UHGV virus genome: UHGV-0027489
Direction: 5' to 3' (one strand)
DNA length: 27,684 nt
DNA from: a virus
The notes under the pieces are model-generated. The model was given only the letters and a program-made list of their open reading frames with translations. It did not search any database and was not told the origin of the DNA. The translations under genes and the position numbers were made by a program. Positions 1,983 through 26,130 of this stretch are shown here, one piece after another; positions within the stretch are counted from its first letter, which is position 1; every line of letters starts with the position of its first letter.

Positions 1983-2169
1983 AGTGACCACCGTTTACTG
2001 TGCATAAAAACCCCCTTAGTTGGTGAGTTCATCATACACAATAAACCATATATGGAGTAAATTACCTGATGTCTAGCCACAAAAAACACAAACGCGGCAT
2101 AGAACTGAGTGACTGTGGATGGTTTAGCATTTAAAATGAAATAAATTACGTATAAAACAGGATTGAGTA

Positions 2170-3318
2170 ATGAGTTTTTTCTATGATTTTAGCGTATATC
2201 AGCTTATTGCATTCTTAATTTTTATTTTTTTTGTATTTCTTATTCCTGTGAAATCAGGGATAGTAAACAATTCACAAAACAATATTTTGTGGCTTGAAGG
2301 TCTTAGGGGTGTGGCATGTATTATGGTTTTTTTCAATCATTTTGCTTACTACTTACCTACGATAGGGATAACAAACCAAAACATTCCATATAAAATAATG
2401 CCGATATATGATAATTTTGGCTCATTAGGGGTGGAGATATTTTTCGCAATTACCGGGTTCCTTTTTTTATCAAGAATAAAAAATGTAAAAAGCGCGGATG
2501 ATTTTATGATGAAGAGAATAAAACGACTAGCACCTGCGTTTTTATTTTTTGCATTGATAAACATGGCAGTGTTTATAATATTTATGTCTGATGGAGCTAG
2601 TCTTGATGATTACAGAAAAGCACTTATTCAGCTATTAGCGTTTGGGTTTCTTGGCGGTGGAATTTTCTTCAAAGACTCATGGATACACAGTATTGGCGTG
2701 GTATCATGGACTCTGCCGTATGAATGGATTTTCTATATATCAATTGTAGCTATATCTCTTTTTTATAAAAATGAAAAATATATTTCCATAACACTGTTTA
2801 TTATTGGTATTTATACTATAGAAAAGTCTAATTTAAATACAGATATGTTTTTATTTTTCATTAGTGGTGCGGTTGGTAAAGTTGTTTACGATAATTCACT
2901 AAACCATGATAAAAAATCTTGGAAGTTGATTATATCAATTACAGCAATATTAACATTGCTCACCTGCATTTATCAAAAAGATGACGGATACGGGATTTAT
3001 AGATTTATTTTAGTAACAATATTATTCTCCAGCATTTGCTACATTAAGCCTAAGTTTCTTCAATCCAGCAACATAGTATTGATTGGTATGATTAGCTATA
3101 GCATATACCTTAGCCACCAAGCTATTATATATCTATCTTTATACGTATTTAAAATAATTGGGTTTAACCTATATGAAATAGGAATCCTTTCCTACTTCAT
3201 TATGTCAATAATTACATTTATGATTACTGTGATAATATCACTAATAACCTATAAAAACATTGAGTTGAGATTCAACTCAAAAGTTAATAGTTCGCTACAA
3301 GTCTCGCATACCAAGTAG
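2170..3318 (+). CDS. Integral-membrane acyltransferase (acyltransferase-3/OafA-like), probable O-antigen acetyltransferase for seroconversion
   Basis: 382 aa, about 10 predicted TM helices; N-terminal WLEGLRGVACIMVFFNHF region typical of acyltransferase family 3; visibly AT-rich relative to flanking phage DNA; opposite strand to the late operon; adjacent to the tailspike as in phiV10-like phages (from memory). Confidence 0.75.
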   Translation: MSFFYDFSVYQLIAFLIFIFFVFLIPVKSGIVNNSQNNILWLEGLRGVACIMVFFNHFAYYLPTIGITNQNIPYKIMPIYDNFGSLGVEIFFAITGFLFLSRIKNVKSADDFMMKRIKRLAPAFLFFALINMAVFIIFMSDGASLDDYRKALIQLLAFGFLGGGIFFKDSWIHSIGVVSWTLPYEWIFYISIVAISLFYKNEKYISITLFIIGIYTIEKSNLNTDMFLFFISGAVGKVVYDNSLNHDKKSWKLIISITAILTLLTCIYQKDDGYGIYRFILVTILFSSICYIKPKFLQSSNIVLIGMISYSIYLSHQAIIYLSLYVFKIIGFNLYEIGILSYFIMSIITFMITVIISLITYKNIELRFNSKVNSSLQVSHTK

Positions 3319-5446
3319 CCCCGCCATCAGCAGTTGACATCCGGAACACCTGAGTTCCGGATTCATTTAGTGATGGTGTATTTTTCGCAAGCGTAACAGA
3401 TCCTGTAAAGGTGATCAGTTTTGATGATGCGGAAAACACTGAAAGTGTACATTCAGTATATCCTATTGGCGGGTTACTGAGTGTCGCAACGGATATACTA
3501 ATGTTAGAGTTGCATGTTATTGAAATATAAGAAGACAATGAAAAATCAGCAACATAAGTGCTTCCTGCTGTTTCTGTTTTAATAACATACGAGATAATTG
3601 GAACACCAACTCCTTTTCTGAAAAAAGTCCTGTTAGCATGCATGTCGTCTTCTATGCCAACGAAATTTTTTGTCCCCACAGCATTTGTGAACTCTTGAGC
3701 CACCCCAGAAACATGATTTATACATTTACCAACCCATGCTGGGCTGTTTGAGTTTTCACATAAAGAAAATCCACAATTCGCACTACCTACAAGAAATGGA
3801 TATAACGCCGCAGTATAACTTGAGAGACCGGCAGAATTATAAGCATTCATGTTAACGAACGTTTGACACTGAGAGAATATATTCCCGGTAGCGCCACTAT
3901 CAACGAAGAAACCAATCCCACCATTAATATAACCATCAACAGGAGCTAAATTTGTTTTTGTGTAATCCCATTTTGATGGTGAATCTGCAAAACATTGATT
4001 AAATGAGTTGTTTATAGAATTTTGTACAACAAAGCAACATTTCATTCTTGAGTTTTGGTCGGCCACTGTATCGTCATACATTCCCCAGTTATGTACGTTA
4101 TTAAGCCTGTTATTTCCACCATTCCTAACCCACGTTCCGAATCTGAAATATCTGCCTTCACCCATACTAATATGGTGATCGCTTCCTTCTATGATGTGTG
4201 CCTGACTAAGTGGATTCGTAGGTTTTAATACGCTGATAGCATAGAATTTCATGAGGTGCACACCCATGCCTCCAGCAATATGAATGCCATGACCATCAAC
4301 GTTGGCTACGTAAATGCCATCTAACTTGTTGGCATAACCATCAGATATTTTAAATCCATTAACAGTCTTTGCGCGGGCGTCAATTAAAAGATTGCTAATG
4401 TGCCCAGCGTATTGATTACCTGTTCCTTTATCGCATTTAACAGCATACCCAGAAGAATCTGCTATGAAGTCATCCGTGAGATATACCCCTCCAAATTCTG
4501 CATCTATGCTTACATCACCGTAAACATGTAATGTTGTGTTTATGGGGTATTTCTTTCCATTTAATCTGACAACTTTGCATACAGTATTTGGTTGTATCCA
4601 GTCTGGATGCCCAGCTGCACTACTTGGAGAATGTTCCAGCCCTGTTAAAGATGCTGCATAATCAATCGCCTCCTGCAATGTTGAATACATATCAGGATTG
4701 ACGAATATAACATTTTTTAGCTCACTACCAACCGTACCACCGGCGTAATCAACTGACTTATCGAACCCTGATAATCCCGCTCCAGTAGGCTTTGCCAGCT
4801 CAATTAACACATCGGTGGCGCTACCTGATGGGGGTAGTGTTGCAAATGGCTGACCAGCGCTATCAAAAGCAACAATTTTGTTTGCCCTGGAAATCGCATC
4901 AGGAAGAGATTGAATAGCTTCCGGTGTTCTTAGTGTTTTGTTGAGGTTTGTATCTGCAACGCTATCAACATAATTTTTAGTTGCCGCATCCTGCGGGCGT
5001 GAAGGATCTCGCAGGTTTCTGATGTAGTTATTAAGAGCATCATAATAGTTAGCCACGAACGAAGGCTTTCTGAGGGCCAGACTTAACCAGCTGCGTACCT
5101 GCTGAATCAGCATAGTCAGTTTATCAAAAGCATCCTCATGCACTTCTGCGAAGAACTTACCCTGATTACGGAGATCGGTTTCCTGCGTCACCGGCAACTC
5201 ACGCGAAATGGAAATTTGGTATCCGTTTGCAAGTGCCGACATCAGTATTACATTGCCACCAGAATACCCACCAGCACCCGTAACTGTATAATCAGTATCA
5301 AGAATCAGCTCTGTGATGTTCCCGTTCAGGTCAGACACCTGAACAACCAGGTCTGATTTTCTGAAAATTCGAAAAGTATACGGAAACGATGTCGTAACGC
5401 CGTTACCTGTGTATTCGTTGTGGTCAACTTCGGTTGAGACCGTCAT
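3284..5446 (-). CDS. Tailspike / receptor-binding protein
   Basis: 720-aa ORF, last structural gene before the lysis cassette; G/N/S/T-rich repetitive middle and C-terminal region consistent with a beta-helix depolymerase-type tailspike; GGAG RBS 6 nt upstream of the ATG. Confidence 0.7.
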   Translation of the reverse strand: MTVSTEVDHNEYTGNGVTTSFPYTFRIFRKSDLVVQVSDLNGNITELILDTDYTVTGAGGYSGGNVILMSALANGYQISISRELPVTQETDLRNQGKFFAEVHEDAFDKLTMLIQQVRSWLSLALRKPSFVANYYDALNNYIRNLRDPSRPQDAATKNYVDSVADTNLNKTLRTPEAIQSLPDAISRANKIVAFDSAGQPFATLPPSGSATDVLIELAKPTGAGLSGFDKSVDYAGGTVGSELKNVIFVNPDMYSTLQEAIDYAASLTGLEHSPSSAAGHPDWIQPNTVCKVVRLNGKKYPINTTLHVYGDVSIDAEFGGVYLTDDFIADSSGYAVKCDKGTGNQYAGHISNLLIDARAKTVNGFKISDGYANKLDGIYVANVDGHGIHIAGGMGVHLMKFYAISVLKPTNPLSQAHIIEGSDHHISMGEGRYFRFGTWVRNGGNNRLNNVHNWGMYDDTVADQNSRMKCCFVVQNSINNSFNQCFADSPSKWDYTKTNLAPVDGYINGGIGFFVDSGATGNIFSQCQTFVNMNAYNSAGLSSYTAALYPFLVGSANCGFSLCENSNSPAWVGKCINHVSGVAQEFTNAVGTKNFVGIEDDMHANRTFFRKGVGVPIISYVIKTETAGSTYVADFSLSSYISITCNSNISISVATLSNPPIGYTECTLSVFSASSKLITFTGSVTLAKNTPSLNESGTQVFRMSTADGGATWYARLVANY

Positions 5447-5498: not shown

Positions 5499-5521
5499 TA
5501 TTACCTGCAAAACCACATATG
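5499..5521. promoter_or_regulatory. Conserved 23-bp element TATTACC-N5-AACCACATATG (copy A)
   Basis: Matches 22458-22480 at 18 of 23 positions (only the 5-nt spacer differs); sits in the intergenic region between the tailspike start and the LexA-box gene. Confidence 0.45.
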
Positions 5522-5549
5522 GATAGAAAGGCTGTAAATACGAATAGAT

Positions 5550-5566
5550 ATTACCTTTCAGGTAAT
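5550..5566. promoter_or_regulatory. Operator-like palindrome ATTACCT-TTC-AGGTAAT (copy A)
   Basis: Perfect 7-bp inverted repeat with a 3-bp spacer; a 16-bp identical copy lies at 22521-22536; both sit upstream of plus-strand moron units and ~90-105 bp upstream of minus-strand gene starts. Confidence 0.5.
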
Positions 5567-5602
5567 TTGCAAAACGTGCTGGATAGCAAACAAATTATTT
5601 GC

Positions 5603-5622
5603 TACTGTATAAATATACAGTT
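5603..5622 (+). promoter_or_regulatory. LexA (SOS) box
   Basis: TACTGTATAAATATACAGTT matches the E. coli LexA consensus TACTGTATATATATACAGTA at 18 of 20 positions (CTGT-N8-ACAG with AT-rich spacer); lies 20 bp upstream of ATG 5642 and overlaps a TATAAAT -10-like hexamer. Confidence 0.65.
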
Positions 5623-5641: not shown

Positions 5642-5899
5642 ATGCAGCAGTATCACTATCCACTGGAAGACGGATTTACCGAAAGGATTCACACGCCGGG
5701 AGGCGTCAGGTCACTGGTGGATGGATCGCACTTGATGAAATTACTCCGGGATCTCGATAAAGATGGATTTAATGTCGATGGCCCACTTGCCGAACTGACT
5801 GCACTGATTAACTACGTCACCAGCTCACAGATGTCTATGCAGGATCTGCAAACACATCTAGACTATTGTGCCGAACAATTACGAAAACAAACCACATAA
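5642..5899 (+). CDS. Small SOS-regulated protein of unknown function (85 aa); candidate antirepressor or other SOS-induced moron product
   Basis: ATG 5642 preceded by GGAGAAG RBS at 6-nt spacing; the track's upstream start at 5519 would place the operator elements and LexA box inside the ORF, so I prefer 5642; opposite strand to the structural operon; no family recognised. Confidence 0.5.
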   Translation: MQQYHYPLEDGFTERIHTPGGVRSLVDGSHLMKLLRDLDKDGFNVDGPLAELTALINYVTSSQMSMQDLQTHLDYCAEQLRKQTT

Positions 5900-5922: not shown

Positions 5923-5934
5923 GTGACATGTCAC
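5923..5934. repeat. Perfect 12-bp palindrome GTGACATGTCAC (copy 1 of 3)
   Basis: Exact 12-mer also at 23510-23521 and 25775-25786; lies between convergent gene ends next to the terminator hairpin. Confidence 0.6.
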
Positions 5935-19539: not shown

Positions 19540-20241
19540 TTATTTGCCATAGAGCACTTCGGCCGCACTACGCTGGCCTTCATTACCACCGGTGACCATG
19601 CCATCTTCAGACATCGCCTTTCCGATTTTCACGAACGTTTTGACCAGATCAGGGTGATTACCCAGCCCGGTGGTGTTCAGATATTCTTTGAGTTCAGGTG
19701 TCCCGAACTGGTCAAGCGCACGCTGTGCGACGCTAAGGTTAGAAATCAACTTGTCGCCACCGATTTCTTTGTCAGCTTTTACATCCGCAGCCCACTGCTC
19801 GGTTGTTTTCTGCCAGGCTTCTGCCTGGCGCTGCTGAACACCTGCCAGAATCTTCGGATAAGCATCAACCAGCTTTTGCGCTTGCTCGTTGGTCAGGTTA
19901 AGTTCTCGCGCCACCGGCTCGAATTCCTTCAACGCTTCTGTATCCAGATCTACGCCTTCGGCAGCCTGAAACTCGTACTTCTCAGGCGCACCCTCTGGTT
20001 TATCGCCGCCCTTTTTTTCATCCTGCTTATCGTTTTCAGGCTTTTTGTCATCAGCAGGTTTATCGCCATCAGCAACAGGTTGTGGCTTATCACCTTCTTG
20101 TTGTGATGGATCACCAACTGGAGCAGGGTTATCACCTGCAGGCGCTGACGGTTCTGACGCAGCCGGAGCTGCTCCACCATCGACTGGTTGCTCATTGCAA
20201 AGACGGCGATACAGCAAACGCTCAAATAAATTCATGATCAC
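19540..20241 (-). CDS. Scaffolding protein (putative)
   Basis: 233 aa, highly acidic low-complexity N-terminal half (P/A/D/K/E-rich) and helical C-terminal half; between portal and capsid genes; 4-nt overlap with the upstream gene. Confidence 0.55.
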   Translation of the reverse strand: MIMNLFERLLYRRLCNEQPVDGGAAPAASEPSAPAGDNPAPVGDPSQQEGDKPQPVADGDKPADDKKPENDKQDEKKGGDKPEGAPEKYEFQAAEGVDLDTEALKEFEPVARELNLTNEQAQKLVDAYPKILAGVQQRQAEAWQKTTEQWAADVKADKEIGGDKLISNLSVAQRALDQFGTPELKEYLNTTGLGNHPDLVKTFVKIGKAMSEDGMVTGGNEGQRSAAEVLYGK

Positions 20242-20534
20242 TCCTGTTCACTGGCCTCTTTGGCCATCTTCAAATACTGTTCAGGGCAATGCGCCATAAC
20301 GCGCTGAAACAGTTCCAGCGCCAGATTGCGTTGCCCCTCATTAAATGCCATTGCCATAGCGTCCATCGGTGAGATAGCGGAAAACACACGGCCTTTCTCC
20401 AGCACCGACCAGACAACGCGACGCCCCTGTTCACTGCTCATGACAAAGCGAATGTCATCAATTTCACGCTGTGCCATGTCACGTTGCTTACGGGCGTTTT
20501 CTTCTTTCAGTTGATCATCTTCGTAATCTGTCAT
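20238..20534 (-). CDS. Small head-assembly-region protein (98 aa), unknown function
   Basis: ORF between portal and scaffold, overlapping both by 4 nt (translational coupling). Confidence 0.4.
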   Translation of the reverse strand: MTDYEDDQLKEENARKQRDMAQREIDDIRFVMSSEQGRRVVWSVLEKGRVFSAISPMDAMAMAFNEGQRNLALELFQRVMAHCPEQYLKMAKEASEQE

Positions 20535-22210
20535 TGTGATTGCCCACCCTGACCACTAACTGCATTCGCCATAGCTGACAAAACACTCGGATCCGAAGTT
20601 TTAGCTTCGCTTAGCGTCTTGGCGCCCTGTGCCGCCGCCATTCCCATCGCCATCATTTGTTGCTGCTGTTGCTGCTGTGCCCGTTGCTGGCGAGCCTGCT
20701 CAACCTGTTCCTGCGGAACAATGACGGTTGGAGACACTCCGGACATATCAGCGAATGCATCGATCGCCTGATCAACGTTGAGTTTGTCGAGAGCTTCTGG
20801 TTTCGCTTGCGCAAGTTGACCAATGAAGTTGACCGTAGACGCCAGACTGGACAGGCCGATAGACTTCTGCGCCTGAGCCATGACGGAAATGTATTCGACC
20901 TTCAGGGGCATGCCTTCCATCGCGTCAGGCGGTGGCGGCAGCATGTTTTTACGCACCATCATCGAGAAAGCGCGGTCAATGAGAGGATTAAGACATTCGT
21001 CGTTCAGACGCTCCAGAACCGGCCCCAACATCAGAAGCTTTTCTTCTTTCATTTCGATCACTGCTTCAACAGGCATCGAGCGGGTATTGATGTTCTGCAA
21101 CATCATGAACAGATCGACAAAGTAGGCGCTGTTAATGATTTGGCGAGTGTCCTGAATGTCTGCTACCAGATCTGCTGTACTGGGGTTAACCAGATAAGCA
21201 GGCCTGAAACCATCCTGACCAGTAATCTGATCGATATACGTGATGTCGCCAGGAAGAAGGGAGGCGCGCTGATTCTTGAGGGAAGTCGGAGCAACCATCG
21301 GCGGATTGGTGGCTTTATCAATCAACTGCGACTTGCGCTTCTGGAGAAGCTGCAATGCCTTAACAGGTCCAAGCGCCAGCATACCCGGGCATGATGATCC
21401 ATAAACATCTTCGCCGTTAACTTCCCAGCGCGGAGCCATAATTGGAAACTCATCGAATCCGGACTCACGCAACAACTTGTCGTTATCGCCACCAACCTCG
21501 TAATAAACCGATTTGAATGGCTTGTTCTTGCTATCCAGCTTCGATGTATCGCGGTCAATGTTCGGGTAAACCGAATGCATCACTTCGATCCACTTCTCGT
21601 AGGTGCCGCTTTCCCACATGCTTTTTACGGATTCGCTGACGTTATTTAGCCCGAACTCCTGAACAAGCTGACGAACAGTCATAGAGAACTTGCGAAAACA
21701 GGTGTCAACACTGCCACGAGGTGAGTTAGCCAGGTAGTAACTGCCTATCGGGAATGGCATTGTGCGAATGATGTCCTCGTCATCCTCCAGCACTGCCATT
21801 GCACCAGTGCTGTATGTGCCGAGGCTTCCGTATAACTGCGGCAGCGACTGATAGAGATTCGACTTATTGAACATATCGTTCATGCGGTTCTGCACCGCCT
21901 CAAGCCACAACTTAACAGGGCCATAATCCATCATTTCAGGATCTGGCGTAGCCAGGCGAAACCACGGACGCGCGGGGCTTGTGATGCCTGACATCATGCC
22001 GCTGGCGAGAGTGCGCGCCGCCATAGTCCCGGTCGAATCAATAATGCGTGTATTGCGTCGATCGTTACGGTTGACCTCAGAAGTCAGAAAGCGGGAACCA
22101 CGCGGGTTGATGTAATCACTCAACTCGCGCCAGTGCGGCTCAAACGACTGACGCTCGCTTTCAAGTTGTGCGAACTGTTTGTTCAATCGCTCTTTAGTTG
22201 TTTCCGCCAT
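20531..22210 (-). CDS. Portal protein
   Basis: 559-aa ORF downstream of the terminase genes and upstream of scaffold/capsid; C-terminal poly-Gln/Ala/Met low-complexity tail; RBS context GGAGTCATTGAAATG. Confidence 0.65.
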   Translation of the reverse strand: MAETTKERLNKQFAQLESERQSFEPHWRELSDYINPRGSRFLTSEVNRNDRRNTRIIDSTGTMAARTLASGMMSGITSPARPWFRLATPDPEMMDYGPVKLWLEAVQNRMNDMFNKSNLYQSLPQLYGSLGTYSTGAMAVLEDDEDIIRTMPFPIGSYYLANSPRGSVDTCFRKFSMTVRQLVQEFGLNNVSESVKSMWESGTYEKWIEVMHSVYPNIDRDTSKLDSKNKPFKSVYYEVGGDNDKLLRESGFDEFPIMAPRWEVNGEDVYGSSCPGMLALGPVKALQLLQKRKSQLIDKATNPPMVAPTSLKNQRASLLPGDITYIDQITGQDGFRPAYLVNPSTADLVADIQDTRQIINSAYFVDLFMMLQNINTRSMPVEAVIEMKEEKLLMLGPVLERLNDECLNPLIDRAFSMMVRKNMLPPPPDAMEGMPLKVEYISVMAQAQKSIGLSSLASTVNFIGQLAQAKPEALDKLNVDQAIDAFADMSGVSPTVIVPQEQVEQARQQRAQQQQQQQMMAMGMAAAQGAKTLSEAKTSDPSVLSAMANAVSGQGGQSQ

Positions 22211-22224
22211 TTCAATGACTCCGG

Positions 22225-22431
22225 TTACTGACCAAGCAGCGTTTTACCGCTGGTATTAGCGGTTGATGTGTCGCCCTGAGAACCGGTAAGCAGCGTAGAA
22301 CTACGACCAGCAGCAGCGCGACGGCGACGTGTTTCTTCGTCGCGGGCATCAACAACGGCGGCATCCTGCTCCTGTGGTGCTGCCTGAACTTCTGGTGTTG
22401 CAGGCACTGATGGTGAGCTACCCATGCACAT
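22225..22431 (-). CDS. Small hydrophilic protein (68 aa) preceding the portal gene
   Basis: ATG 22431 with a GGAG RBS in a 15-nt context nearly identical to the portal's; preferred over the overlapping 79-aa frame (22212-22451), whose translation looks non-protein-like. Confidence 0.4.
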   Translation of the reverse strand: MCMGSSPSVPATPEVQAAPQEQDAAVVDARDEETRRRRAAAGRSSTLLTGSQGDTSTANTSGKTLLGQ

Positions 22432-22457: not shown

Positions 22458-22480
22458 TATTACCAATTTAACCACATATG
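22458..22480. promoter_or_regulatory. Conserved 23-bp element TATTACC-N5-AACCACATATG (copy B)
   Basis: 18 of 23 identity to 5499-5521; intergenic, between the 68-aa gene start and the tRNA-region promoter. Confidence 0.45.
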
Positions 22481-22499
22481 ATTTATTTATCGTAGGTAG

Positions 22500-22537
22500 T
22501 TGACATTTAACGCACAAATTATTACCTTTCAGGTAAG
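22500..22537 (+). promoter_or_regulatory. Putative promoter (TTGACA -35) overlapping operator-like palindrome ATTACCTTTCAGGTAA (copy B)
   Basis: Consensus -35 hexamer TTGACA at 22500-22505; the 16-bp palindrome at 22521-22536 is identical to 5550-5565 and overlaps where a -10 would lie. Confidence 0.45.
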
Positions 22538-22858
22538 TAAAGGGTTCATTCCGGTTATTAACCTGACTTGCTTGTCGTTAAATTGAACAGGTGGAGTGAG
22601 CTTTTATTTTGAGCAGTACGGCGTATGGCACATGCGCCGATAGCGGTCTGGGTACGTTTAAGGGGCACCCTCCCTTGCTCGGGCAAACGAACCAGGTAGC
22701 CGGAATGTGCAAGTCAAGCGGTTTTATTCCGCGCACGGGGATTCACCATCCCGGCGATTCGGTGTGACGCCTCGGAAGAGACGAGGGTACAACGATGAGA
22801 GCATTTATGGAGCCGCGACAAAGTGTGGCGCCTTAACAGGCTAAGTGCTCTCAGCGTT
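22538..22858 (+). other. ORF-free GC-rich leader upstream of the tRNA (candidate structured RNA / tRNA precursor leader)
   Basis: About 320 nt with no ORF of 60 aa or more on either strand in an otherwise densely coding genome; several local hairpins; contains a 13-codon mini-ORF (22795-22836, MRAFMEPRQSVAP) with a GAGGG RBS. Confidence 0.25.
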
Positions 22859-22935
22859 GTGGCATTAGCTCAGTTGGACAGAGCAACCGCCTTCTAAGCG
22901 GTTGGTCGCAGGTTCGAATCCTGCATGCCACGCCA
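22859..22935 (+). tRNA. tRNA-Arg (anticodon UCU)
   Basis: 77 nt by hand folding: acceptor stem GTGGCAT/ATGCCAC, D-arm GCTC-AGTTGGACA-GAGC, anticodon stem ACCGC/GCGGT with loop CTTCTAA (anticodon TCT), T-arm GCAGG-TTCGAAT-CCTGC, discriminator G, encoded CCA. Resembles but is not identical to E. coli argU as I recall it. Confidence 0.85.
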
Positions 22936-22981
22936 GAATCACGCCTAAGGACCGTGATGCCAGAAGTTCCAGGTGCTTGGC

Positions 22982-23021
22982 GGTGATAGTTTCCCTTGAA
23001 GGACTATCACCGCACTTTTTA
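22982..23021 (+). terminator. Intrinsic terminator downstream of the tRNA
   Basis: GGTGATAGT-N12-ACTATCACC 9-bp stem followed by GCAC then TTTTT, about 45 nt after the tRNA 3' end. Confidence 0.45.
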
Positions 23022-23098
23022 CAGCAGGACGCCATTGCGATGACTTCATGCTGTAAACCCGTACAGCCACGGAAGGCATAACTCATTGCTTCCAGTTC

Positions 23099-23122
23099 GC
23101 CCGGTTCGCCGGGCATTTTTTT
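23099..23122 (+). terminator. Intrinsic terminator / attenuator immediately upstream of the 123-aa gene
   Basis: GCCCGG-TTCG-CCGGGC (6-bp stem, TTCG tetraloop) followed by ATTTTTTT; ends about 12 nt before ATG 23134 and abuts its RBS. Confidence 0.55.
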
Positions 23123-23133
23123 AAGGTGAGATT

Positions 23134-23505
23134 ATGAACGACCAGCAAATCGAAAAAGAAATCGTTGAGAAAGGCAAAACGGCACCGCGCGTTACGCCAG
23201 ACCATATCGAAGGCATTATTGCTCAGGAGGCATATTTCACAGCAGAAGATGGTGCCTTTGGCAAAGCCATAAAAGCGAAACATACTGGCGGAGAGGTAAA
23301 CTACCAGCCGCACGAATCACTTTCTCTGCTGACGTTCTGCGTCCTGGTGCTGCGCAACGGCTTCACCGTCACCGGAGAAAGCGCCTGTGCAAGCCCGGAA
23401 AACTTTGATGCAGAAATTGGTCGGAAGATTGCCCGGCAGAATGCTGTAAACAAAATCTGGATGCTCGAAGGTTACTTGCTGAAGCAGAAGCTAAGCGAGC
23501 AATAA
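23134..23505 (+). CDS. Conserved small phage protein (123 aa), possibly N4 gp49 / Sf6 gp66 family; function unknown
   Basis: AAGGTGAG RBS before the ATG; motif block NGFTVTGESACASPENFDAEIGRKIA...IWMLEGYLL looks domain-like and matches my recollection of the Gp49-like family (unverified); opposite strand to the flanking terminase and portal genes. Confidence 0.5.
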   Translation: MNDQQIEKEIVEKGKTAPRVTPDHIEGIIAQEAYFTAEDGAFGKAIKAKHTGGEVNYQPHESLSLLTFCVLVLRNGFTVTGESACASPENFDAEIGRKIARQNAVNKIWMLEGYLLKQKLSEQ

Positions 23506-23509
23506 CACC

Positions 23510-23521
23510 GTGACATGTCAC
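23510..23521. repeat. Perfect 12-bp palindrome GTGACATGTCAC (copy 2 of 3)
   Basis: Starts 5 nt after the stop of the 123-aa gene, directly before a terminator hairpin; flanks cGTGACATGTCACa identical to copy 3. Confidence 0.6.
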
Positions 23522-23595: not shown

Positions 23596-25071
23596 TTAAG
23601 CATAGGGATCGTAATCTGTGATGGCCTTGCCTTGCTGGTTCTGCTGACCGGGAATTCGCAGACGCTTCGACACAGGGAACGCAAACGTCAGCAGTAGCGC
23701 ATCGCCTTTACCAGGAGAACGCCCAAGTCGCTCTTTGATATCTTCCTTCGGTTCGATAACGATTTTACCGTCCACTCGAACTTTGTACTCTGCCGCCGAC
23801 AGGTCGTCTGCAGTTTCCTGGTCATCCAGCATGCCGCCCAGCCTCAGCCATGTCTTACATGAGTTGAACATCTCCCCACGCTTGTTGAGCATCTGCGGGT
23901 CAGTAGACGCGCCACCGAACGGAACAAGTTGCCATGTACGACCCCAGCCGTCACCGATTGACTTCAGACCAGTTCCGTAACCGAAGTCGATGAACACTGC
24001 GTCAGCCTGGTACTGGTCTTCAAAGTCAGCGATACGCTTCGCCATAATCAGATCGTCGGTGGTCTTGTTACCAGTCCATAGCACCTTACTGTGCAGCCCC
24101 TGCCGCAGGTATATCACCGCGTCATCAACGCCTGAGTATGCCGGGTCAACGCCGATTATCACCGGAGCATGTGCAACCTGCACAGCGGTGACCACCCGTT
24201 TCATTGCCTCGTCAGTAAGTCCGGTAGGGATAAACTGCAATTCGGATGCATCCGGGAATATGCCGCGCACACGGATTTTAACGAAGTCGCTGTCTTCCCC
24301 GTAGTCATCAACCCATTTCTGCAACTGCTGTTTGTTAGTGCCTTCCACCGTCCGGCTGTCAATCTGCGCAGTTTTCCAGCGGTGTTTATATTTGCGGAAA
24401 CATTCGCGAAAACGCCCGGTGTTACGTGTAGGGTTTCCGAACGCCACCCAGATAATCTCAGTGTCTTCGTCCGTAAGCGCACCCTCAGCAACTTCCCACA
24501 CCAGATCCGCAATGTTCGACGCTTCATCGAATACCACGATGATGCGTTTGCGCTCGTTGTGTAGTCCGGCGAATGCCTCAGTGTTGTGCTCAGACCAGGG
24601 TATTGCGTCAGCCCGCCACCGCTTGTCGTGCCCAGGGTCATTGCTGTACATCGCAGTAGCGGTACAGGTAAACCAGTCTTTCGTGATAGCAAGGTTCGAC
24701 CACTTGATAATTTCCGGCCAGGTCTTCGTTCGTAGCTGGTTGTCGGTGTTGGCGGTCACCACGATCTTACAATCCTCGCAAGTGGACATGCCCCAGTTGA
24801 TCAGCATTGAGATGAATGCGGATTTACCAATACCGTGACCAGAAGCGCGTGCCAGCATAAGCGGCTGATAGCGCGTCTCTGGATTCTGCAGGTGATCACG
24901 TATCTCTCGGAACGCATCAGCCTGCCACTGACGTGGGCCGGTAGCATGTGCCAGTTCAGTCCCCTCTTCCCCCCACGGGAACGCATAGAGGGCATAGCCA
25001 AGCGGATCGTGAGTGAACCCTGCAATATCCTCGATCAACTGCTCTTCAGGAGATAACGCTGTATCTGTCAC
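23596..25071 (-). CDS. Terminase large subunit
   Basis: 491 aa; Walker A-like ASGHGIGKS near the N-terminal ATPase region, acidic nuclease-like C-terminal half; start overlaps the stop of the small-terminase gene by 4 nt; followed by the portal after the moron insert. Confidence 0.8.
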   Translation of the reverse strand: MTDTALSPEEQLIEDIAGFTHDPLGYALYAFPWGEEGTELAHATGPRQWQADAFREIRDHLQNPETRYQPLMLARASGHGIGKSAFISMLINWGMSTCEDCKIVVTANTDNQLRTKTWPEIIKWSNLAITKDWFTCTATAMYSNDPGHDKRWRADAIPWSEHNTEAFAGLHNERKRIIVVFDEASNIADLVWEVAEGALTDEDTEIIWVAFGNPTRNTGRFRECFRKYKHRWKTAQIDSRTVEGTNKQQLQKWVDDYGEDSDFVKIRVRGIFPDASELQFIPTGLTDEAMKRVVTAVQVAHAPVIIGVDPAYSGVDDAVIYLRQGLHSKVLWTGNKTTDDLIMAKRIADFEDQYQADAVFIDFGYGTGLKSIGDGWGRTWQLVPFGGASTDPQMLNKRGEMFNSCKTWLRLGGMLDDQETADDLSAAEYKVRVDGKIVIEPKEDIKERLGRSPGKGDALLLTFAFPVSKRLRIPGQQNQQGKAITDYDPYA

Positions 25072-25664
25072 TGATTACCATCCTGACGTTCTTTGAGTCG
25101 CTTCCTGGCTGCCGCTATGCGATCAGCAATTGTCACATTCACATTAACATCCAGGCGTTCTTTGAATGCGTTGACGTCGACGTGCTTACCAATCAGTTCG
25201 AGGTTCTTCACCTTGTCAGGCCATTTAATTTTTTTGAGGATTGTCTCTATCGAATCCTCGTTCATGTTCATGATGGTCGATGACAGATCAAAGCCACTAA
25301 GCGTAGTGCGCCAGATTTTCGGCCACTCGCGGATTGGCTTAAGGCTCCCATCGTCGTTGAGGATATCAATCACGTCCATCTGGTCGATCTCCACCAGGCG
25401 CATGAGAACGTAATCGGCACTGACGCGCATTCGTTTGTTGCGCTCCTCCATCAACTCGGCAATCCGTTTTTGAATGCGTTCATCGCGCATCATGACACTG
25501 GCTTTAACTGCCGCTGTATTTGGGGAGAATCCTGCGTTAATCGCTGCCTGAGTCTGGTTTTCAGGCGTTTTGATGTATGACTGGCAATAAGCCTCCTGCA
25601 TTGCTGTTAGTGGCTTAAATTGCGTTGATTTGCGTTTATAGGTTTTAGGTTCAGCAGGCATCAT
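25068..25664 (-). CDS. Terminase small subunit
   Basis: Immediately upstream of and overlapping terL; basic helix-rich protein. Start set at ATG-ATG (25664) with GGTGG RBS; the track's longer ORF uses a TTG at 25742, which would add a Thr/Val-rich low-complexity extension. Confidence 0.6.
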   Translation of the reverse strand: MMPAEPKTYKRKSTQFKPLTAMQEAYCQSYIKTPENQTQAAINAGFSPNTAAVKASVMMRDERIQKRIAELMEERNKRMRVSADYVLMRLVEIDQMDVIDILNDDGSLKPIREWPKIWRTTLSGFDLSSTIMNMNEDSIETILKKIKWPDKVKNLELIGKHVDVNAFKERLDVNVNVTIADRIAAARKRLKERQDGNQ

Positions 25665-25774
25665 AACCACCGTGGTAATAGTTACCGTTGTGGTAATAGT
25701 ACCATGCAAAATAAAGCCGCCATAGTTGGCGGCAGTATTCAAAACCCATCAAATTCATCATGCATAATCTACTC

Positions 25775-25786
25775 GTGACATGTCAC
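25775..25786. repeat. Perfect 12-bp palindrome GTGACATGTCAC (copy 3 of 3)
   Basis: At the early/late junction: overlaps the stop codon of the Cys-rich gene and lies 30-110 bp upstream of the small-terminase start. Confidence 0.6.
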
Positions 25787-26130
25787 ACTATTAATTTCGT
25801 TTCATGCCAGCCTTTAGTCACCCAGCATTGCGAGTCACCATTACACGGGCATGAATTAACGGGAACTCTCTCGCCGCACTTACCGCAAAGTTTTCTGCTG
25901 ATCGATTTTATACGCCCGCGCACACGTGCATCATCCTGGCGGATCAGCAGCGCGATGTACTCGGCCATTTCATAGGGATCGCGACCAGGGCGCCGGGCGG
26001 CGCAGTTCCGCGCCAGCATTTCCTGCTCCTGCTTATCCAGCACCAGTTCAATTTTGCGCTCACCGGCGGCGGACTGCCGAGCGCGCTGCGCGGCTTTGCG
26101 TTCTGCGGGGGATTTAGCCACGAATCGCAC
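25783..26130 (-). CDS. Basic Cys-rich small protein (zinc-finger-like C-terminus); candidate transcriptional regulator
   Basis: C-terminal C-x2-C-x8-C-x-C (CGKCGERVPVNSCPC); basic N-terminal region; last early-region gene before the terminase. The 115-aa ORF starts at GTG; internal ATGs would give 78 or 61 aa. Confidence 0.4.
   Translation of the reverse strand: MRFVAKSPAERKAAQRARQSAAGERKIELVLDKQEQEMLARNCAARRPGRDPYEMAEYIALLIRQDDARVRGRIKSISRKLCGKCGERVPVNSCPCNGDSQCWVTKGWHETKLIV

Follow-up and report, generated by a model that had tools for sequence, protein, structure and literature searches.

Predicted Rep operators paired with a palindromic box at the heads of late transcription units in an Escherichia coli prophage of the phiV10/epsilon15 group

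Results

The DNA analysed here, referred to as the window (27,684 nucleotides; UHGV-0027489), is, judging from sequence comparison, an E. coli prophage of the phiV10/epsilon15 type (Uetakevirus), inserted at guaA. Around the finding it shares 96% identity with Escherichia phage phiV10 over the tested stretch and about 79%–81% identity with the Salmonella phages epsilon15, SPN1S and SPC32H (genus Uetakevirus), and at its right end it shows 100% identity to a guaA-adjacent prophage of E. coli 2017.15.01CC (NZ_AP021890.1). This strain is a human isolate from Viet Nam, and in its prophage locus (NZ_AP021890.1, 3373000-3389000; L108) integrase, PerC-like, AlpA-like, RecT and Rep genes lie just past the point corresponding to the right end of the window. 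The window is inverted relative to the phage maps, and the late genes are therefore found on its minus strand. The genes and units relevant to this study are listed below, with module A denoting the regulatory region upstream of the tailspike gene and module B the one upstream of the gp3-like and portal genes.

Start codon at 1982, minus strand: lysis cassette
3284-5446, minus strand: tailspike gene, downstream of module A
5642-5899, plus strand: ant, antirepressor of Rep, product 87% identical to SPC32H Ant
20531-22210, minus strand: portal gene, after the gp3-like gene and followed by the head and tail genes
22225-22431, minus strand: gp3-like 68-aa gene, the first gene downstream of module B
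22859-22935, plus strand: tRNA-Arg gene, anticodon TCT
23134-23505, plus strand: N4 gp49/Sf6 gp66-family gene (PF13876, E = 8.6e-35), the last gene of its plus-strand unit
23596-25071, minus strand: terL
Start codon at 25661, minus strand: terS

An acyltransferase gene (PF01757) at 2170-3318 is the real conversion-type cassette of the window. A search of the region against Rfam returned the tRNA and no other family. An 83-aa minus-strand ORF at 22865-23116, the counterpart of annotated PhiV10p04, runs across tRNA-Arg and a terminator of the opposite strand and is probably not a real gene.

Two elements were originally predicted to occur in the same order in the two intergenic regions, and both are present, far above chance. 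Block 1 (TATTACC-N5-AACCACATATG) lies at 5499-5521 and 22458-22480 with 18 of 23 positions in common, and these are the sole two matches to the pattern in the window at up to 3 mismatches (0.02 expected). The palindrome ATTACCTTTCAGGTAA(T/G) follows 28 and 40 nt downstream, at 5550-5566 and 22521-22537; when written as ATTACC-N5-GGTAAT it has no mismatch at the first site and one at the second. The distances from the palindrome to the minus-strand gene starts were also given roughly correctly; they measure 90-106 nt for gp3 (22431) and 104-120 nt for the tailspike (5446). Additional copies of both elements had escaped the original prediction. Two tandem palindromes (25663-25679 and 25681-25697) stand right before the terS start codon, bringing the sites in the window to 4 vs. 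0.77 expected, and a third copy of the block-1 core is found at about 2031-2055, ahead of the lysis genes. The regulatory elements, with their predicted roles, are as follows.

2031-2055, minus strand: third box copy, CCATATATGGTTTATTGTGTATGAT, with a perfect CCATATATGG at 2046-2055 and then TATGAT at 2031-2036; ahead of the lysis cassette
2061-2066, minus strand: isolated GGTAAT half-site at the acyltransferase gene junction, 5 nt upstream of the lysis box
5499-5521, minus strand: block 1 copy A, CATATGTGGTT-TTGCA-GGTAATA(GAAT), box core at 5513-5522; candidate core promoter of the tailspike gene
5550-5566, unstranded: predicted Rep operator of the tailspike unit, a perfect and conserved ATTACCTTTCAGGTAAT, between the tailspike promoter region and Pant
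5580-5622, plus strand: Pant, predicted promoter of ant, TGGATA (5580)-N17-TACTGT (5603), with a LexA box over the -10
22458-22480, minus strand: block 1 copy B, CATATGTGGTT-AAATT-GGTAATA(AT), box core at 22472-22481; candidate core promoter of the gp3-portal unit
22501-22529, plus strand: sigma70-type promoter, TTGACA (22501-22506)-N17-TACCTT (22524-22529), toward the tRNA-Arg/gp66-like unit
22521-22537, unstranded: predicted Rep operator of the gp3-portal unit, ATTACCTTTCAGGTAAG, one mismatch, core invariant in 10 genomes
25663-25697, unstranded: two tandem predicted Rep operators in an 18-bp register, directly before the terS ATG (25661)

The 17-bp palindrome ATTACC-N5-GGTAAT is very probably the operator of the phage immunity repressor Rep, an HTH protein, given the GenBank annotation of epsilon15 and positional homology to it. 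The epsilon15 record (AY150271.2) carries seven protein_bind features labelled "repressor / lysogeny" by its depositors, all of the form ATTACC-N5-GGTAAT, and places them before terS, gp3 (2931-2947), the tailspike gene (19895-19911) and gp43, with three more adjoining the repressor gene. By alignment, the epsilon15 sites at 2931-2947 and 19895-19911 are the positional homologues of 22521-22537 and 5550-5566 in the window. The proposal of a shared set of protein-binding operators thus agrees with an existing annotation of the homologous sites. The "unidentified dimeric regulator" that was to bind them is better replaced by the prophage's own Rep, a protein reported to bind as a tetramer (PMC9638917).

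The distribution of the palindrome is the same in all four genomes of an operator census (epsilon15, phiV10, SPC32H and Tyrion), with clusters on both sides of rep and sites at the heads of the terS, gp3, tailspike, lysis and gp43-type units. The cognate rep gene of the source prophage is located outside the window, about 3 kb past its right end, and encodes a protein identical to phiV10 Rep. Operators flank it in L108 (3799, 4511 and 4573) and a further pair 62 bp apart is found at 1406/1468, so that the source prophage has two operator pairs with 62 bp spacing. SPC32H Rep is reported to bind palindromic sites as a tetramer whose DNA-binding pairs are formed across dimers, and to be removed from DNA by the tetrameric antirepressor Ant (PMC9638917). 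The C-terminal domain of Rep has been likened to the DNA-looping tetramerisation domain of Rco and p53, named "TetDloop" (PMC9986798). The phiV10-type and epsilon15 repressors are reported to share 42% identity (PMC9782041), and despite this divergence the two systems have one operator consensus in common.

Both plus-strand units had been taken for morons, each served by its module. Neither is a moron. A moron has its own promoter, active in the lysogen and outside lytic control, whereas ant has a LexA box on its promoter and the tRNA promoter is covered by a predicted Rep operator. The ant product matches chain E of PDB entry 5D50 (E = 3e-47), the structure of SPC32H Ant with Rep. The LexA box of Pant (TACTGTATAAATATACAGTT, 5603-5622) agrees at 18 of 20 positions and is the only match in the window (0.00 expected), and the -35 region of Pant is conserved in relatives. 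We take Pant and ant to be the SOS-triggered induction switch of the phage.

The promoter toward the tRNA-Arg/gp66-like unit shows a nearly invariant -35, an exact 17-nt spacing and a variable spacer in 9 of 10 aligned genomes (the nine enteric ones). Its -10, TACCTT, matches the consensus at three of six positions, namely the T, A and T that matter most, and the footprint of TTGACA-N17-TACCTT as a whole is that of a real promoter as judged by conservation. The operator at 22521-22537 also overlies the -10 and +1 of this promoter. As both the -10 and the start would lie inside the operator, Rep should repress the tRNA-Arg/gp66-like promoter in the lysogen. The suggestion that the modules act as divergent internal promoters holds for module B, which contains one on the plus strand. 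In the alignment of module A, a comparable -35 was sought and none was found. Between the module B promoter and tRNA-Arg lies a leader of about 320 nt (22536-22858, plus strand) that is ORF-poor and GC-rich, folds better than shuffled sequences (z = -3.06) and matched no Rfam family. An "RNaseIII" processing site is annotated in the equivalent region of the epsilon15 record.

Block 1 itself belongs, as its orientation and spacing indicate, to the minus (late) strand. It lies gene-proximal to the operator wherever an operator exists, and it has the late-gene orientation in all three copies. Its conserved core is a second palindrome, CCATAT[A/G]TGG, flanked by AA/TT with GGTT and distinct from the operator; we refer to it as the box. 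The second half of block 1, GGTAAT plus AAT or AGAAT, merges a Rep half-site with a -10-like hexamer. In copy B this combined half-site and -10-like sequence is GGTAATAAT, and in epsilon15 and SPC32H the -10 of PR is likewise GGTAATAAT, made by the right half of an operator. In copy A, GGTAATAGAAT is invariant in 9 of 10 aligned tailspike regions. The window prophage lacks the full Rep operator that its relatives have upstream of the lysis box (2056-2170), and the GGTAAT half-site (2061-2066) remains. The loss coincides with a change of sequence at the junction with a different acyltransferase gene. With the full operator gone, the lysis promoter may have lost direct Rep control here.

The spacing of these elements is fixed toward the minus-strand late genes and not, as the original prediction had it, toward the plus-strand units. 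At gp3, operator start and box start are separated by 57 nt in the window, in four phages and in seven prophages (from Scandinavium, Pseudocitrobacter, two species of Citrobacter, Superficieibacter, Buttiauxella and Pantoea). At the tailspike the value is 45 nt in all genomes in which both elements could be located, and at the lysis unit of the four reference phages, where a full operator lies upstream, it is 48 nt. The arrangement is kept across six or seven enterobacterial genera, and the alignments show conserved islands (operator, box, GGTAAT with the -10-like hexamer, and Shine-Dalgarno) amid variable spacers. The prophages used for footprinting were drawn from a GTDB scan; a portal-protein scan of IMG/VR gave 80 near-identical loci that were uninformative for this use. 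In more distantly related prophages of Providencia, Arsenophonus and Pseudomonas neither motif is present, and a repeat search in the Providencia locus returned no analogous motif pair.

A consensus promoter scan at block 1 returned no sigma70 promoter, with weak -10 candidates at gp3 and the tailspike, and a -35 element was sought in the three late units and found in none of them. The best -10 candidates, TAGAAT, TATGAT and AATAAT, lie 66, 66 and 76 nt from their operators, and the operator centers would then fall near -70, -70 and -80, one helical turn apart, by simple arithmetic on a handful of sites. Across all promoters, the centers of operator and box are about 19.5, 40.5-43.5 and 52.5 bp apart, or roughly 2, 4 and 5 turns, again for a handful of sites. 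The half-site of the gp3 module falls exactly on the 62-bp register of the operator pairs. We rate it as somewhat more likely than not that block 1 is the core of a late-gene promoter that has no -35; the conserved spacing and orientation toward the late genes speak for this, and the negative scan and the weak -10 candidates speak against it.

Several other identities were considered for block 1. An IHF site was set aside on inspection as there is no match to WATCAANNNNTTR and the IHF features of the epsilon15 record do not overlap the block, and a CRP site, a sigma54 or sigma32 promoter and an NrdR box were also ruled out by inspection. A full second operator is inconsistent with its left half, GTGGTT, which is unlike ATTACC, and a DnaA box is matched at 8 of 9 positions in the gp3 copy only.

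The box is also found outside the late units. In the reference genomes it occurs in the spacer of a clear sigma70 promoter before the gp43-type genes (TTGAWW-N17-TTTAAT); a second full operator, 62 bp away from the first, lies beyond that promoter. The box also adjoins the -35 of a promoter located downstream of the gp39 terminator. In phiV10 and Tyrion it occurs in the PL spacer as well. The strict box 10-mer is modestly enriched, with 2-4 copies per genome vs. about 1 expected, and nearly all copies are intergenic and near operators. Two small proteins are candidate binders. A 76-aa protein in the Cro position matches phrog_35 ("transcriptional repressor"), and a 112/115-aa Cys-rich protein encoded at 25700-26130 (minus strand), directly before terS, matches phrog_536 ("transcriptional regulator"). 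For the latter, searches of Pfam, NCBIfam and PDB yielded no relative, and its homologues are called "hypothetical" in every source.

A third palindrome, GTGACATGTCAC (12 bp, perfect), occurs at 5923-5934, 23510-23521 and 25775-25786, with a chance expectation of about 0.002 per perfect copy. Each copy is found where a transcription segment ends, between the stop codon of a gene and an intrinsic terminator. The stop codon of the 112/115-aa gene lies inside its copy; some 40 nt beyond, a strong terminator is followed by the two Rep operators and terS. Epsilon15 and SPC32H have copies at these three positions. In phiV10 and Tyrion the two internal copies are present, and their linear records stop before the terS-proximal position.

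Relatives with an extra Bro-type antirepressor cassette have an operator 45-46 nt upstream of a box-like sequence, TTATGTGGTTTG (phiV10, 20496-20552; L087, 19230-19290; L090, 19478-19540; L091, 19121-19180). This sequence is the reverse complement of the last codons of ant (KQTT-stop), and the combination may be fortuitous or may mark an antisense promoter. In the window the 3' end of ant (5886-5899) is the same, but no operator accompanies it.

Discussion

The explanation that we favor, with reservations, assigns each module to a late minus-strand unit as its control region, made up of a Rep operator and a promoter core. The palindromic box would sit roughly where the -35 or the spacer of a promoter is expected, followed by the -10-like hexamer fused to a Rep half-site. 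In the lysogen, Rep on the strong upstream operator (at about -70 or -80) would silence each late unit, and from there it might extend to the weak half-site at the -10 or block the promoter in another way. The portal and head genes, the tailspike gene and, in relatives, the lysis genes would thus be kept directly repressed, and in module B the same operator would shut the divergent sigma70 promoter of the tRNA-Arg/gp66-like unit. Upon DNA damage, LexA cleavage would free Pant, Ant would strip Rep from its sites and all units would open. The box probably recruits or excludes a further factor, for which the Cro-position 76-aa protein and the 112-aa Cys-rich regulator are candidates.

Simple occlusion does not usually involve a strong operator placed as far as 60-90 bp ahead of the proposed start, and this counts against the explanation. 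Bridging of operator and half-site by one Rep tetramer is offered tentatively; it fits the two DNA-binding pairs of the tetramer and the recurrent 62-bp operator pairs. The lysis box is followed by TATGAT and has no GGTAAT there, and bridging therefore cannot be general.

The main competing idea concerns what binds block 1. The box (AACCATATATGGTT-like) may be the site of a second, separate dimeric regulator working alongside Rep, the Rep half-site being incidental; the Cro-position 76-aa or the 112-aa Cys-rich protein would then activate the delayed and late promoters in the manner of the T4 MotA box or P1 Lpa, shut the early ones, or both. We give this idea a serious chance, if a less than even one, and it is compatible with the control-region explanation, from which it differs solely in the binder of block 1. 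The core of the box is itself palindromic (perfectly so in several copies), it recurs at gp43-type and gp40-type promoters and at PL of phiV10 and Tyrion, nearly always in regulatory DNA near operators, the late promoters that would bear it have no -35, and both candidate binders match regulator families (phrog_35 and phrog_536). Such a regulator has to be set against the modest enrichment of the strict 10-mer (2-4 per genome vs. about 1), the "hypothetical" status of the 112-aa family in all sources with neither a PDB nor a Pfam relative, and a box position that ranges from about -20 to -41 relative to the -10. This variation (about -41 at the gp40-type promoter, within the spacer at the gp43-type promoter and PL) argues against an activator bound at a fixed position. 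A broader version, in which the box AACCATATATGGTT marks a second Uetakevirus regulon of delayed-early, late and lysis genes that is read by a phage protein and phase-locked to the Rep operators at about 2, 4 or 5 turns, with one Rep tetramer gating every late promoter by bridging to the half-site in its -10, strikes us as rather unlikely. If true, it would make for a flat circuit with no cascade and no antitermination.

The remaining alternatives are all improbable, to different degrees. The original prediction, that the modules are upstream control regions of the plus-strand units (ant and the tRNA/gp66-like unit), draws on the overlap of the module B operator with the -10 of a conserved plus-strand promoter and on the module A operator, which spans about -49 to -65 relative to Pant and could there influence UP-element/alpha-CTD contacts. 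We consider it improbable: relative to the tRNA promoter, block 1 would fall at about -45 to -67, and relative to Pant at about -94 to -116, so that the two plus-strand units share no arrangement, in contrast to the fixed spacing seen for the minus-strand genes. The copy at the lysis genes, too, is late-gene-proximal, and Pant already has a complete LexA-controlled promoter of its own. The late genes could also be read solely from a terS-proximal promoter by read-through or antitermination, with the operators acting as Rep roadblocks and block 1 as an RNA or processing element. The order of regulator gene, site, terminator and terS recalls lambda Q, PR' and tR', and the epsilon15 record has RNase III sites annotated in these intergenic regions. 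Read-through would, however, have to pass convergent units together with their terminators, the box as a palindrome in DNA is also present in the spacers of clear sigma70 promoters, and the distance from block 1 to the ribosome-binding site varies among the units (about 27, 50 and 75 nt when counted to the start codon); we hold little expectation of this alternative. That the similarity is a non-functional duplication remnant or a recombination boundary between mosaic modules is very improbable, even with both modules at junctions with inserted opposite-strand cassettes and the lysis operator truncated exactly at such a junction. The shared part comprises short motifs alone, the spacers are unrelated in sequence and length (28 vs. 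40 nt), and motifs and spacing are kept across genera while the flanks diverge, as is typical of a protein-binding footprint. Pure chance is excluded by the match counts relative to expectation (0.02 and 0.77) and by the conservation.

Under the control-region explanation, the modules resemble several known systems in part. They are closest to the Rep operators of epsilon15 and SPC32H, with the same inverted repeat in the same places before gp3 and before the tailspike gene, and differ from these in nothing essential (a 1-bp variant at the gp3 site and the loss of the full lysis operator). The Rep-Ant-LexA switch is likewise matched by an Ant that is 87% identical, a LexA box on Pant and a phiV10-type Rep in the same prophage. 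T4 middle promoters (MotA box) and P1 late promoters (Lpa) have no -35 and carry a conserved box near -30 or -22. The candidate late promoters described here are similar in that a -10 is recognisable, a -35 is missing and a conserved short element recurs ahead of several late units, at about -20 to -30, but the box is palindromic and is also found elsewhere in early promoters, and no MotA, AsiA or Lpa homologue was identified. As with lambda OL and OR (CI and Cro), the repressor gene has multiple palindromic operators on either side, and these overlap PL and PR; unlike in lambda, operators also head every later unit (head, tail and lysis), and induction would proceed by an antirepressor and not by repressor cleavage. 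The combination of a strong distal site with a weak promoter-proximal one is reminiscent of LacI O1/O3, GalR OE/OI and Rco of pLS20. Here, though, a half-site joined to an unrelated palindrome takes the place of the proximal operator, no such half-site is present at the lysis unit, and looping is a proposal. A likeness to looping tetramers lies in the two DNA-binding pairs and the p53-like "TetDloop" reported for Rep (PMC9986798) and in the 62-bp operator pairs.

The operator system is already known and both homologous sites are annotated in epsilon15; the sites described here are new instances in an E. coli prophage. The pairing of box and operator is a modest observation of an unannotated promoter box within what is mostly ordinary phage regulation. 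Our search of annotations and literature, which did not extend to the epsilon15 genome paper and any promoters it may cover, returned no description of the box or of its pairing with the operator. Literature searches with the motif strings returned unrelated primers only, and for Uetakevirus or phiV10 promoters nothing was found beyond a prediction-level statement in the ZX5 paper.

It is worthwhile to consider what this arrangement would mean for the phage group. In a common family of E. coli prophages, the immunity repressor would be placed not at the early promoters alone but also directly at the start of each structural-gene unit, and in relatives at the lysis genes as well. The apparent "morons" would be an SOS-triggered antirepressor and a repressor-controlled tRNA unit. 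This is relevant to the interpretation of prophage induction and to the engineering of phiV10-type reporter phages. The finding opens no new class of system, and the repeated box may offer a handle toward the late-gene regulator of this phage group.
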